Assembly (NCBI RefSeq): GCF_988243305.1
Contig: NZ_OZ547136.1
Reading direction: 5' to 3' (one strand)
Length of the DNA stretch: 64,000 bases
Below, piece by piece: positions 1-6,000 of the stretch. Within the stretch, counting starts at the first letter, position 1, and each line of letters opens with the position of its first letter. The position numbers were made by a program.

Positions 1-3000
1 TATATTGAACAGCATTCTCGCTATCAAAATAAAGCTAATAACATCCAATTAAGATATGATGATAAGCAGTTTCATACAACGGTTATCAAAGATGTTCTAT
101 TATGGATTGAACATAATTTAGATCAGTCTTTACTGCTTGATGATGTGGCGAATAAAGCGGGTTATACCAAGTGGTATTTTCAGCGGCTGTTCAAAAAAGT
201 AACAGGGGTCACACTGGCTAGCTATATTCGTGCTCGTCGTTTGACGAAAGCGGCTGTTGAGTTGAGGTTGACGAAAAAAACTATCCTTGAGATCGCATTA
301 AAATATCAATTTGATTCCCAACAATCTTTTACACGTCGATTTAAGTACATTTTTAAGGTTACACCAAGTTATTATCGGCGTAATAAATTATGGGAATTGG
401 AGGCAATGCACTGAGAGATCCCCTCATAATTTCCCCAAAGCGTAACCATGTGTGAATAAATTTTGAGCTAGTAGGGTTGCAGCCACGAGTAAGTCTTCCC
501 TTGTTATTGTGTAGCCAGAATGCCGCAAAACTTCCATGCCTAAGCGAACTGTTGAGAGTACGTTTCGATTTCTGACTGTGAACCGCCCCGGGAATCCTGG
601 AGACTAAACTTCCTGAGAAAGAGGTAAACAGGATGACTAAAAATACTCGTTTTTCCCCCGAAGTCCGTCAACGGGCAGTCCGTATGGTTCTGGAAAGTCA
701 GAGCGAATATGACTCACAATGGGCGACAATTTGTTCCATTGCTCCAAAGATTGGCTGTACGCCGGAGACTCTGCGTGTCTGGGTTCGCCAGCATGAGCGG
801 GATACCGGGGGCGGTGATGGAGGGCTCACCACCGCTGAACGTCAGCGTCTGAAAGAGCTGGAACGTGAAAATCGTGAACTGCGCCGCAGTAACGATATCC
901 TTCGCCAGGCTTCCGCTTATTTTGCGAAGGCGGAGTTCGACCGCCTCTGGAAAAAATGATGCCACTGCTGGATAAGCTGCGTGAGCAGTACGGGGTCGGA
1001 CCGCTATGCAGCGAACTGCATATTGCCCCGTCAACGTATTACCACTGTCAGCAACAGCGACATCATCCGGATAAACGCAGTGCCCGTGCGCAGCGCGATG
1101 ACTGGCTGAAGAAAGAGATACAGCGCGTATACGATGAAAATCACAAGGTATACGGTGTGCGTAAAGTCTGGCGTCAGTTGTTACGGGAAGGTATCAGAGT
1201 GGCCAGATGCACTGTGGCACGTCTCATGGCGGTTATGGGACTTGCCGGTGTTCTCCGGGGTAAAAAGGTCCGTACGACCATCAGCCGGAAAGCCGTTGCC
1301 GCAGGCGACCGCGTAAACCGTCAGTTCGTGGCAGAACGACCTGACCAGCTGTGGGTGGCTGATTTTACTTACGTCAGCACATGGCGGGGCTTCGTCTATG
1401 TGGCGTTCATCATTGATGTGTTTGCCGGATACATCGTGGGGTGGCGGGTCTCATCGTCCATGGAAACGACATTCGTGCTGGATGCACTGGAGCAGGCGTT
1501 ATGGGCCCGTCGACCGTCCGGCACGGTCCATCACAGTGATAAAGGTTCTCAGTATGTATCGCTGGCCTACACACAGCGGCTTAAGGAAGCCGGATTACTG
1601 GCATCAACAGGAAGTACAGGCGACTCGTATGACAACGCGATGGCGGAGAGCATCAATGGTCTTTACAAAGCGGAGGTAATACACCGTAAGAGCTGGAAAA
1701 ACCGTGCAGAAGTGGAACTGGCCACACTCACGTGGGTGGACTGGTATAACAATCGACGATTGCTGGAAAGGCTGGGCCATACTCCTCCGGCAGAAGCAGA
1801 AAAAGCTTATTATGCTTCCATCGGAAACGATGATCTGGCAGCCTGAGTTCACAGATAAAACACTCTCCAGGAAACCCGGGGCGGTTCACTGTGTTAGCCT
1901 GGAAGTGCTTGTCCCAACCTTGTTTCTGAGCATGAACGCCCGCAAGCCAACATGTTAGTTGAAGCATCAGGGCGATTAGCAGCATGATATCAAAACGCTC
2001 TGAGCTGCTCGTTCGGCTATGGCGTAGGCCTAGTCCGTAGGCAGGACTTTTCAAGTCTCGGAAGGTTTCTTCAATCTGCATTCGCTTCGAATAGATATTA
2101 ACAAGTTGTTTGGGTGTTCGAATTTCAACAGGTAAGTTAGTTGCTAGAACCCATGGCTCCTTTGCCGACGCTGAGTAGATTTTAGGTGACGGGTGGTGAC
2201 AATGAGTCCGTGTCGAGCGCTGATTTTTTCGGCCTTTAGAGCGAGATTTATACAATAGAATTTGGCATGAGATTGGATTGCTTTTAGTCAGCCTCTTATA
2301 GCCTAAAGTCTTTGAGTGACTAGATGACATATCATGTAAGTTGCTGATAGGTTTCCAGTTTTCCGCTCCTAGGTCTGCATATTGTACTTTTCCTCTTACT
2401 CGACTTAACCAGTACCAACCCAGCTTCTCAACGGATTTATACCATGGCACTTTAAAGCCAGCATCACTGACAATGAGCGGTGTGGTGTTACTCGGTAGAA
2501 TGCTCGCAAGGTCGGCTAGAAATTGGTCATGAGCTTTCTTTGAACATTGCTCTGAAAGCGGGAACGCTTTCTCATAAAGAGTAACAGAACGACCGTGTAG
2601 TGCGACTGAAGCTCGCAATACCATAAGTCGTTTTTGCTCACGAATATCAGACCAGTCAACAAGTACAATGGGCATCGTATTGCCCGAACAGATAAAGCTA
2701 GCATGCCAACGGTATACAGCGAGTCGCTCTTTGTGGAGGTGACGATTACCTAACAATCGGTCGATTCGTTTGATGTTATGTTTTGTTCTCGCTTTGGTTG
2801 GCAGGTTACGGCCAAGTTCGGTAAGAGTGAGAGTTTTACAGTCAAGTAATGCGTGGCAAGCCAACGTTAAGCTGTTGAGTCGTTTTAAGTGTAATTCGGG
2901 GCAGAATTGGTAAAGAGAGTCGTGTAAAATATCGAGTTCGCACATCTTGTTGTCTGATTATTGATTTTTGGCGAAACCATTTGATCATATGACAAGATGT

Positions 3001-6000
3001 GTATCTACCTTAACTTAATGATTTTTACCAAAATCATTAGGGGATTCATCAGCCCGCAGCAACTACAGAACGGTAAATAACATTACCCGGGGGAAGCATC
3101 CGGAGGCGAAACAATGAAACTGGCCCTGACGCTGGAAGCCGACAGCATTAACGTGCAGGCACTGAACATGGGGCGCATTGTCGTTGACGTCGATGGTGTT
3201 AATCTCGCTGAACTGTTTAATAAAGTCGCGGAAAATGGTTATTCACTCCGCGTGGTGGATGAGCGTGTCACTACCGAAACACCGGCGACCTCTGCCAGCC
3301 CTCATCAGTTGCCGGAAGACAATACAGTGATACAGAGCGTAATGCCATTAGCCACAGAAACGGCGCTGGATATTCTGATTGTGTGGCTGCAGGACAATAT
3401 CGACTGCGAATCGGGGATTATCTTCGACAACGATGAGGATAAAACGGATTCGGCAGCACTGTTGCCCTGCATTGAACAGGCCAGGGAAGATATCCATACC
3501 CTGCGCCAACTACAGCTTCTGCACCAGAACCGGTAAATATTACTCACCATACTTCATTCCACTGACGCCAGCCTGAACAGGGCTGGCGTTTTCATTTATC
3601 TGCAAAAAGGAAAAACGATTATGTCTGAAATCACAGTCTCCCGTCCGGAAGTGGTCAACGGACATACGGACGTTATCTGCTCAACCTCAGTCAGCCACAT
3701 TCTGGCTGTACGAAAGAGTACACTGTTGCAAATCGACATACTTATCCGGCAACTGGCTGAAATCTCAGCAATGACAGAAAGTATTGGCGGTAAAACCGCA
3801 CTGGACTGGGCCATGAAACAGGATTTTCGCTGCGGCTGCTGGCTCATGGAGAAACCTGAAACGGCAATGAAAGCCATTACCCGCAACCTTGACCGTGAAA
3901 TCTGGCGTGACCTGATGCAACGCTCCGGGATGCTGTCATTAATGGATGCGCAGACCCGTGATACATGGTACCGGTCACTGGAGTACGATAATTTTCCGGA
4001 AATCAGTGAAGCGAACATTATGAGCACATTTGAACAACTGCACCAGAATAAGGATGAGGTGTTTGAGCGGGGAGTGATTAACGTCTTCAGGGGACTGAGC
4101 TGGAATTATAAAACCAACTCTCCCTGTAAATTTGGCAGTAAAATTATCGTCAACAATCTGGTGAGATGGGGCCGGTGGGGATTTCATCTTATCACCGGAC
4201 CACAGACTGACCGGGTTGCCGACCTGGAAAGGATGCTGCATCTCTTCAGTGGCATCCCCACTCCCGACAACCGGGAAAATATCATAATTCGTCTGGATGA
4301 GCATATCCGGTCTGTTCAGGGTAAAGAGTACTATGAAGACGAAATGTTTATCATTAAATACTTTAAGAAGGGATCTGCACACATCACTTTCAAAAGGCTG
4401 GAACTGATTGACAGAATTAACGATATAATAGTCAGGCACTTTCCTTCTGTGCTCTCAGCCTGATCCCGAGTGTGATTCCCTTTCGATATCAAAAGGGACT
4501 GCGGGTATAATTGAGGGTACATTTTTAATCAAACCAAACAAATCAGATTAATATCAATATGATAAAAGAAATTTTCGATTCCGAGTCCGGCACCACTAAT
4601 TCTTAAGAACCCGCCCACAAGGCGGGTTTTTGCTTTTGGATCTGACAATAACCTTCACGAAAAAACTTAGCTTATAAGGTCTGGGGGAATTACTCTCGCC
4701 ACGTTAACGAGAGTAATTTTATTGATATTAATCTCCTGATACTTTACCCCCGTCCAAACTCCAGCCGCTGCACATTCACCATCCCAGGCTTCTCAGCAGC
4801 ACTGACATCAATTTGTGTCACCCGCAGCGCATATTTTTCATCCAGTGCGTTTAACCATTTCAGAAGGTCATTAAACACCACAGGTTCTATCCAGACCTGA
4901 ATATTCTCCCCACGCTCGGCTATCCGCTTGATGACCACCGAGTGCGCGGAAGCACTGTCACTGATGACCCGCGATACCTGCGCAGGCGTTGTTGTGGCAG
5001 ATTTTCGCGCTGCAATAATATCCGGCGCGGCGCTCTTCAGTCGGGTGTTCATTGCCACCAGCTGCTGCAACATCGTCTCCTGTTGTTCTATCCGTTCGCT
5101 CAACGGCTGCCAGATGAGGACGTAATATCCGGCGCTAAACAGGAACACCGCCGCTGCCAGTAACATGCCTTTTTCACGCGGAGAACGCCCCGCCAGGTGT
5201 TGTGTCAGCCAGTGTTCGCCACGGCTTAACTGGCGTTCACGCCATTGCTGAAAATAGTGAATAAATTTATCGCGTAACATGTTATTTCCTCCGCAACGTT
5301 ACGCCGCCGGAAACCGCATCACCCTCTTTCTGTAACGCGTCCTGTTGCACAACATAATCTGCCGCCAGTGCGCTACGCAGTTTGTCGAAGCTGGCAAAGT
5401 TTGCAGCCCGTAGCTGAAGGTGAAGCGTCTGGCGTTTTTGATCAAAGGTGAAACCACGCATTTCGATGTCGGTAAGTGACGCTGATTTCAGGGTACTGGC
5501 GATCGCTGACAATTCTGCGAGCAGCCGGGTATCGTCGGCCTGCGGGCGATATTTTTTCAGCGCCATCGTCACCTGGGAACGCAAATTCACAATCCGCTTC
5601 TGCTCCGGGAACAGTGTTAAGAACTTTTTTTCCGCCTGGGTGCGGCTTTGCGCCACCTGTTCGCTGACGCTCCATAACGTCACGCCCCGTTCCACTACCA
5701 GCGCAACCAGAATCAGCAATATCGGCAGAATCATCACCCGCCAGCGCGCCCACTGTTTTCGGTAGCTGACACGAGGCTGCCACGGCCCTGTTAGCAGGTT
5801 CCCTTCCGGTTCGCCATAAGTGGTAATGGCTGGCAGAGCCGTAACGGTCAGGCGTTCGGCGTCCGCACCAGCCCATGCAGATAGTTCTTCCGGTGCAATG
5901 CCGACCACGGTTAGCGAAAGCGGTAAATTCTGCTCATTGAGCTGTGCACGGAACATGACCGGAGCCAGCGCCCGCCCGGCGCTCCATCCCCGGCATTCAT

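Follow-up and report, generated by a model that had tools for sequence, protein, structure and literature searches.

The left end of the window (the whole 64-kb stretch of DNA that was analysed), positions 1-3052, is very probably the right-hand part of a Tn10 that lies in the chromosome, is inserted in cbtA of a pheV island and has had its IS10-Right arm hit by IS629. Tn10, a composite transposon for tetracycline resistance, has the order IS10L - jemABC - tetR - tetA(B) - tetC - tetD - IS10R, and we are strongly confident that tet(B) lies immediately left of the window. Table 1 lists the features that support this reading.

Table 1. Features at the left end of the window, from the Tn10 regulator gene to the first backbone gene past the pheV island
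Feature	Position	Strand	Basis or remark
tetD of Tn10	1-414	+	codons 2-138 and TGA stop; 100% identity to R100 Tn10
IS10-Right, inner 168 bp	411-578	.	exact pattern match of inside end; identical to R100 IS10R
IS629/IS1203-like IS3-family insertion sequence, 1,310 bp, complete	579-1888	+	NCBIfam IS3 family transposase, E 1e-93
Terminal inverted repeats of nested element	579-604 and 1863-1888
orfA of nested element	633-959	+	108 aa
orfB of nested element	956-1846	+	296 aa; overlaps orfA at 956-959
Chimeric transposase ORF	1728-2945	-	405 aa: 353 IS10 residues and a 52-aa tail from IS629 antisense
IS10-Right, outer 1,164 bp	1889-3052	-	NCBIfam IS4 family transposase, E 6.5e-112
RNA-OUT, IS10 antisense regulator	2938-3007	+	Rfam RF00240, 99.5 bits (gathering score 41)
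9 bp beside IS10 outside end, CCCGCAGCA	3053-3061	.	presumptive Tn10 target sequence; same as intact cbtA in L012 at 9940-9948
cbtA (yeeV-family) toxin gene, last 65 nt	3053-3117	+	identical to intact cbtA in L012 at 9940-10004
DUF5983-family ORF	3114-3536	+	Pfam PF25638 on identical protein (ORF and Pfam paired in listed order)
DUF4942 ORF	3621-4463	+	Pfam PF13708 on identical protein (paired in listed order)
attR, right boundary of pheV island: pheV 3'-end repeat, TTCGATTCCGAGTCCGGCACCA	4574-4595	+	alignment with empty site; pattern match
yghD/gspM, first backbone gene past island	4744-5280	-

tetD and the IS10-Right arm

Every base of the tetD segment at window positions 1-410 is the same as in the Tn10 of R100, and the identity continues through the junction of tetD with the IS10 inside end (578 of 578 nt for positions 1-578). 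The gene lacks nothing but its ATG, since the coding sequence is 417 nt long and the window opens with its 4th nucleotide. In L001, where this coding sequence occupies 9498-9914, the match begins at 9501, which places the ATG 3 nt to the left of the window. An earlier sequence-only reading of this DNA had described a MarA-like regulator gene with a frame open to the window edge and a stop codon overlapping the IS10 inside end, and had taken the product to be TetD. All of this agrees with our results: codons 2-138 run from window position 1, the TGA occupies 412-414 while IS10 begins at 411, and the sequence is that of R100 tetD. No feature described in that reading is due to chance similarity.

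Scored against NCBIfam models, the product is an AraC regulator of the MarA/SoxS/Rob type, with residues 25-135 aligning to the N-terminus of Rob (E 4e-50) and further matches to SoxS (6e-35), RamA (9e-34) and MarA (5e-29). Since every one of these scores falls under its equivalog cut-off, TetD is a homologue of MarA, SoxS and Rob and none of those proteins. Identification of the regulator with MarA, SoxS or Rob is ruled out by the sub-equivalog scores together with the DNA identity to Tn10 tetD. TetD activates genes of the mar/sox/rob regulon. As a point of nomenclature, the Tn10 gene tetD encodes a regulator and is distinct from the efflux class tet(D).

Both ends of the IS10 arm are intact and exact. 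The inside terminal repeat, CTGAGAGATCCCCTCATAATTTC, lies at 411-433 and includes the tetD stop codon, and the outside terminal repeat lies at 3030-3052; pattern matching across the 64-kb window found no further IS10 ends. The transposase ATG is at 2945 (outside coordinate 108) on the minus strand, so that the gene reads inward from the outside end, as had been noted from the sequence. The ends of the IS10 copy were likewise read correctly, but the copy, at 411-3052, spans 2,642 bp rather than 1,329 bp (1,329 + 1,310 + 3), and the insertion sequence nested in it had been overlooked. RNA-OUT is full length and intact and is directed toward the outside end.

Excision of 579-1891 in silico restores a 1,329-bp IS10 that has 3 nucleotide differences from the IS10R of R100 and 14 from IS10L, and the reconstructed transposase differs from IS10R at no residue and from IS10L at four. 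At the nucleotide sites that discriminate right from left arms, 13 of 15 carry the R-type base; the outside-end bases at IS10 coordinates 47 and 83 are of IS10L type, and the base at coordinate 203 is private. The arm is of IS10-Right type. Assignment to IS10-Left is ruled out by the 14 nucleotide and four amino acid differences and by the position of the arm on the tetD side. The arrangement of tetD and IS10-Right that is characteristic of Tn10, as first proposed from the sequence, is thus borne out by the R-type arm and by a junction identical to that of R100.

The nested element and the interrupted transposase

The nested element belongs to the IS629/IS1203 group of the IS3 family, and we name it at group level. 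Over its first 100 nt it shares 91-95% identity with copies that bear the label IS1203/IS629, and homologous copies are named IS1203/IS3 family by PGAP. An ALIL pseudoknot is found within it at 914-1030 (Rfam, 120 bits), and a 3-bp target duplication, CTG, flanks it at 576-578 and 1889-1891.

Because IS10 is interrupted at 579-1888, the transposase ORF is chimeric. The nested element cuts the IS10 transposase gene after residue 353 of 402, leaving this IS10-Right copy with a disrupted gene and no intact 402-aa DDE transposase. The chimeric protein was not on record in an exact-protein look-up. In a homology search with its junction-spanning tail, all matches were IS629-antisense tails attached to some other gene; in one of them (P0002) that gene is the IS10 transposase, interrupted after another residue, which represents another insertion point. 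No record among the matches examined holds the IS10/IS629 junction as one contiguous piece. Two candidates for the same IS10::IS629 structure (H2 and H7) were rejected, as they have an IS3-family element elsewhere in IS10 and lie at other chromosomal sites.

These observations suggest that IS10-Right received an IS629/IS1203-like element by transposition, at outside coordinate 1161/1162, either after the arrival of Tn10 or earlier, while Tn10 was on a previous replicon. Such an insertion would account for the CTG duplication and for the loss of the final 49 of the 402 transposase residues, in whose place a foreign tail now stands. The active, cis-preferring transposase of Tn10 normally comes from IS10R, and IS10L is weak. 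As IS10-Right is not intact, this Tn10 is without its main source of transposase. On the basis of established Tn10 biology, the truncated transposase is predicted to be inactive and Tn10 to be largely immobilised, and any movement would have to be assisted by the weak IS10L or by an IS10 copy elsewhere.

Probable insertion in cbtA and the sequence to the left

The sequence-only reading had placed the region in a pheV island. This placement is supported by the pheV 3'-end repeat at the right boundary, which is followed by yghD/gspM. The repeat is 22 nt long, one G shorter than the end of the tRNA gene, and no tRNA genes were found in the 64-kb window, the proximal island boundary being further left. 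The closest complete genome, that of strain Z1323HEC0462, has an empty pheV site, with the order yghD-pheV-yqgA and nothing between.

As judged from the flanking sequence, Tn10 has entered cbtA, the toxin gene of a toxin-antitoxin module that lies distally in this island, at its end. When the break in cbtA is mapped on the intact copy in L012, IS10 stops cleanly at its terminus and colinear cbtA sequence follows directly. The 9 bp beside the outside end, CCCGCAGCA, are as they were first written down; they fit only four of the six specified positions of the Tn10 target consensus, NGCTNAGCN. A simple scan of 2800-3700 for sigma-70 promoters found no consensus promoter.

We searched for the same locus in other genomes. 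Among 5,426 complete E. coli genomes, megablast of positions 1-4700 and of the junction found no record that spans the IS10/cbtA junction. Exact scans for the 34-nt junction sequence, GGGGATTCATCAGCCCGCAGCAACTACAGAACGG, gave no matches in GTDB representative genomes and none in JGI metagenome contigs. The exact DUF5983, DUF4942, GspM and GspL proteins are very common alleles, and there was no Tn10 in the contexts listed for them.

A complete Tn10 would extend about 7.4 kb leftward of the window, with the tetD ATG, tetC, tetA(B), tetR, jemCBA and IS10-Left in that order. Beyond IS10-Left would lie a second copy of CCCGCAGCA and then the 5' 313 nt of cbtA (codons 1-104, ending in GGCAACAGGTCTGATGA). 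Under the control of TetR(B), tetA(B) would provide inducible tetracycline efflux.

The distribution of Tn10 genes in complete E. coli genomes lends this expectation strong, though indirect, support. At least 80% of the tetD segment is present in 588 records from the 5,426 genomes, and the full tetA-3'/tetC/tetD block is estimated to be present in about 574-596 (in a sample of 40 rows spaced evenly through 883 records, 26 have it). E. coli records with intact tetD thus appear nearly always to carry tetC and tetA as well. Chromosomes commonly carry tetD: they account for 307 of the 705 places at which it was found in the complete genomes. One sampled copy (H133) has IS1 inside tet(B), so the presence of tet(B) is no proof that it functions.

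An alternative that we consider unlikely is that the tet genes are present yet rearranged, through IS10-promoted deletion or inversion, recombination between insertion sequences, or inclusion in a larger multiresistance region. In that case IS10-Left would have no matching 9-bp duplication at its side, and the island may have lost some of its DNA. The 5' 313 nt of cbtA, looked for across the 64-kb window and not found, would fit such an event, but their absence is uninformative because simple insertion also puts them to the left of the window. Also in line with rearrangement, the predicted CbtA::IS10L fusion protein is not on record, although the cbtA allele used for the prediction (that of L012, joined to the IS10 end) was a guess. 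At coordinates 47 and 83 the IS10L-type bases would fit a past exchange between the two arms, and in O118 STEC Tn10 has been described inside a larger resistance region (PMC13182975). Against this stands the clean IS10 terminus with colinear cbtA beside it, which is what simple insertion gives.

There is, we think, only a slim chance that the left part is a larger or rearranged resistance region that was locked in the pheV island by the IS629 hit on IS10-Right. Were this so, outward reading from the intact pOUT/RNA-OUT end would cover the orphaned tail of cbtA and the genes for DUF5983 and DUF4942, and the locus would amount to a chromosomal resistance island that is immobilised and private to one lineage. 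The evidence points to no new kind of element.

It is very improbable that tetD and IS10-Right::IS629 survive here as a solo remnant, with tetC-tetA-tetR and IS10-Left deleted or recombined away and no tet(B) at this site. In its favour, field copies of Tn10 are often truncated (in 123 of 889 E. coli records the coverage of tetR-tetD is under 80%), MS20677 offers a precedent with a 39-bp remnant of tetD and none of the tet genes, the IS629 copy within IS10 attests to insertion sequence activity at the locus, and the junction was found in no relative among the complete E. coli genomes, GTDB representatives and JGI metagenomes. However, the truncations are one-sided, as all partial copies sampled kept the tetA side, with tetR/tetA, and lost the tetD side, the 39-bp scrap being the single exception; the number of records with intact tetD matches the estimate for the full block; and the sequence shows no difference from Tn10 as far as the window edge, which is 3 nt short of the start of tetD.

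For the preferred reading, a Tn10 with tet(B) to its left, the value lies in annotation: a probable chromosomal tet(B) determinant is flagged in this strain. Two errors are also avoided, namely taking the 2.6-kb span for one intact IS10 and mistaking the tetD regulator for the efflux class tet(D). Since a second insertion sequence has disrupted the main source of transposase, the resistance is likely to be fixed in the pheV island and not freely mobile. The locus is already known biology and ordinary mobile DNA, and no open question in the field hangs on it.

Comparison with known Tn10 loci

Tn10 has been described together with the cbtA/cbeA (yeeV/yeeU) module in two other chromosomal settings. 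Island GI-5 of E. coli 55989 holds a Tn10-like element with a yeeV-yeeU module (PMC3551546), and the AMR-SSuT island of O118 STEC holds an ISVsa5-flanked Tn10 and also carries cbtA/cbeA (PMC13182975). The junctions of both differ from that of the window, whose IS10/cbtA junction occurs in none of the 5,426 complete E. coli genomes; in O118 STEC, Tn10 interrupts Tn5393 (PMC13182975), whereas in the window it interrupts cbtA.

Strains 23CRST009 (NZ_AP045766) and EC21GDE043 (NZ_CP099721) resemble the window in having an IS1203/IS3-family element in one IS10 arm, and both retain tetR-tet(B)-tetC-tetD in full within a chromosomal island. Unlike in the window, the nested element occupies other IS10 positions in these strains; that of EC21GDE043 lies in the arm adjoining gltS, on the IS10L side. 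The chromosomal sites are different too, namely an island bordering the fim genes in one strain and papA in the other.

A further close counterpart is the 9,147-bp Tn10 of R100/NR1 (NC_002134). It has an identical tetD, the same stop codon within the IS10 inside end and the same orientation of IS10R, and its IS10R shares 1,326 of 1,329 nt and the entire transposase sequence with the arm reconstructed from the window. The two differ in that the IS10R of the window contains the 1,310-bp IS629/IS1203-like insert that truncates the transposase, and in location: the R100 element resides on an IncF plasmid, whereas the copy described here is chromosomal, in cbtA of the pheV island.

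tetD and the interrupted IS10-Right arm

ORF reading of window 1–3600 shows a frame that is open at the window edge and closed by a TGA at 412–414, with the product YIEQHSRYQNK...WELEAMH. Window 1–578 matches the Tn10 of plasmid R100 (NC_002134) at 100% identity over its full length, as it does hundreds of further plasmids (megablast, PLSDB), and direct string comparison revealed no difference from R100 in 1–410. The R100 match begins at nt 4 of the 417-nt CDS between tetC and IS10-Right, so the window holds tetD without its ATG. Judged by its sequence, the regulator is TetD, a MarA-like AraC-type protein. 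Residues 25–135 align with the Rob N-terminus, SoxS, RamA and MarA (NCBIfam, E 4e-50 to 5e-29); scores under all equivalog cut-offs rule out that it is one of these regulators itself. The sequence-only reading had proposed a MarA-like regulator gene, open to the window edge, whose stop codon overlaps the IS10 inside end, in the arrangement known from Tn10. All of this is confirmed; the TGA lies within the inside end.

Each IS10 end occurs once in the window (chance expectation, none) and both termini are intact. The span they delimit, 411–3052, covers 2,642 bp, double what IS10 alone would occupy; omitting 579–1891 leaves 1,329 bp and regains the IS10 length. The doubling is due to a nested IS629/IS1203-like element that the earlier reading did not mention. 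That reading described an IS10 copy with its transposase reading inward from the outside end; the orientation and ends stand, while the copy is not continuous. The transposase is interrupted after residue 353 of 402, and the ORF at 1728–2945 encodes a chimeric transposase with a 52-residue tail.

Coordinates of features in the Tn10 arm and the adjoining island end
Feature	Window position	Remark
IS10 inside end, CTGAGAGATCCCCTCATAATTTC	411–433	pattern match
Nested IS3-family element, complete, 1,310 bp	579–1888	nested in IS10-Right
Terminal repeats of nested element	579–604 and 1863–1888	
orfA of nested element	633–959	
ALIL frameshift pseudoknot in nested element	914–1030	120 bits
orfB of nested element	956–1846	
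RNA-OUT	2938–3007	intact, 99.5 bits
IS10 transposase ATG	2945	outside coordinate 108; reads inward
IS10 outside end	3030–3052	pattern match
cbtA (yeeV-family toxin gene), last 65 nt	3053–3117	directly after IS10 outside end
DUF5983 ORF	3114–3536	after cbtA remnant
DUF4942 ORF	3621–4463	after DUF5983 ORF
pheV 3'-end copy, 22 nt	4574–4595	island boundary

The reconstructed IS10 differs from R100 IS10R at 3 nt (coordinates 47, 83 and 203, counted from the outside end) and from IS10L at 14 nt. Its transposase has the amino-acid sequence of IS10R, with 4 substitutions compared to IS10L. This likeness, together with the position beside tetD, identifies an IS10-Right-type arm; the possibility that it is IS10-Left is ruled out by the same nucleotide and amino-acid differences and by the tetD-side position.

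Two of the odd bases, at window 2970 and 3006 (outside coordinates 83 and 47), are of IS10-Left type in this otherwise IS10-Right-type arm and fall inside the RNA-OUT/RNA-IN region. The base at 2850 (outside coordinate 203) is private and synonymous. This pattern may reflect exchange between IS10 copies or a common field variant.

By sequence comparison, the nested element is IS629/IS1203-like. Its orfA and orfB match the IS3 family transposase model (NCBIfam, E 1e-93), and homologous copies are labelled IS1203 or IS3 family by PGAP. The element is flanked by a 3-bp target duplication, CTG, and looks intact. IS3-family insertions occur at other IS10-arm positions in otherwise complete chromosomal Tn10 of other strains, and the database IS10 transposase P0002, found by homology search with a junction-spanning peptide, is cut by an IS629-like element at a different residue. 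Elements of this IS3-family group seem to have hit IS10 repeatedly, and nested insertions of this kind are recurrent, unremarkable decay. Such nesting is seen in the Tn10-bearing E. coli loci L002 (15001–18052) and L025 (3068–5501 and 12017–14537); the elements in E. coli IS10 arms include IS1203-like and ISSen4 copies at several positions.

Tn10 transposes by cut-and-paste and leaves 9-bp duplications at NGCTNAGCN-like targets. Its transposase, supplied mainly by IS10R, acts on the outside ends with a preference for cis, and RNA-OUT reduces transposition by pairing with the transposase mRNA. The target consensus specifies 6 positions, of which the 9 bp at 3053–3061, CCCGCAGCA, fit 4. With the final 49 residues of its IS10R transposase missing, this Tn10 has most likely lost autonomous mobility and could be mobilised only by IS10L, which is weak, or in trans by a further IS10 copy.

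The cbtA junction at the distal end of the pheV island

The cbtA remnant is identical to and colinear with the intact copy in L012, a locus with the same downstream context (cbtA-DUF5983-DUF4942-gspM). The break follows nt 313 of the 378-nt gene. The 5' 313 nt were not found anywhere in the 64-kb window, and the cbeA antitoxin gene is not in the window, showing that the island's toxin-antitoxin module is disrupted; cbeA is presumably located on the opposite side of Tn10. The DUF5983-family ORF of the window forms one 140-aa frame. In its place, many related islands carry either a 162-aa DUF5983 ORF and a separate 64/65-aa ORF, which some records annotate as DUF957, or pseudogene fragments.

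Past the pheV repeat lie the pheV terminator region and then yghD/gspM. In Z1323HEC0462, the closest complete E. coli genome (99.4% over 23 kb of backbone; all others at most 98.5%), the pheV site is empty, reading yghD-pheV-yqgA with no island. The repeat beside yghD and this island-free genome together support a distal position of the Tn10 end within a pheV island, the island named in the sequence-only reading, with pheV itself beyond the window.

Compared with the tRNA gene, the repeat is missing one G (GGCACCA in the repeat, GGGCACCA in the gene). Directly past the island boundary, a complete-looking type II secretion cluster occupies the minus strand from gspM to gspC, and beyond it a 1,523-aa ORF is found at the yghJ/sslE position; all ORFs of this region (4744–21243) are apparently intact. 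The backbone compared was window 21000–44000, the glc operon and neighbours, over which Z1323HEC0462 alone of 5,426 complete genomes reaches at least 99% identity. The backbone is unusual among sequenced E. coli, and its source lineage seems to be either rare or missing from the searched collections.

None of the 5,426 complete E. coli genomes spans the IS10/cbtA junction or contains the IS10/IS629 junction as one piece, and the 34-nt IS10/cbtA junction was absent from GTDB representative genomes and JGI metagenome contigs. Neither the chimeric transposase (exact look-up) nor a predicted CbtA::IS10L fusion protein was present in protein records, and neighbouring-protein look-ups returned Tn10-free contexts only. 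This arrangement is apparently restricted to a lineage outside these collections.

Probable tet(B) to the left of the window

TetR(B) represses tetA(B) until bound by tetracycline. We gauged Tn10 decay in the 5,426 complete E. coli genomes, where 889 records contain some part of tetR–tetD and 766 at least 80% of that region; the tetD segment is covered to 80% or more in 588. A joint query, fully covered only if the tetA 3' end, tetC and tetD occur together, was so covered in 26 of 40 evenly spaced rows from 883 records. This extrapolates to approximately 574–596 records with the full block, the same number as tetD carriers. The partial rows all begin at the tetA end, having lost tetD and retained tetA (sole exception, a 39-bp tetD scrap), which shows truncation of Tn10 to be one-sided. 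In nearly all cases intact tetD beside IS10R is accompanied by tetC and tetA, and tetA(B) very probably lies within ~2 kb to the left of the window, an estimate that allows for sampling resolution and non-simple rearrangements. Presence of tet(B) is no guarantee of function, since one sampled match, H133, has IS1 inside the gene.

Comparison with known Tn10 insertions

Chromosomal copies of Tn10 are common; of the 705 places where complete E. coli genomes carry tetD, 307 lie on the chromosome. Tn10 is also known from islands carrying yeeV/yeeU modules, in strain 55989 GI-5 and O118 STEC (PMC3551546, PMC13182975). Our data support the reading as the right end of Tn10 in a pheV island, with IS10-Right disrupted and the tet genes expected beyond the window. 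The gene content of Tn10, and the position of IS10-R beside tetD, follow the summary in PMC9412624. Both the element and its setting are of familiar kinds, and novelty is confined to the exact insertion points.
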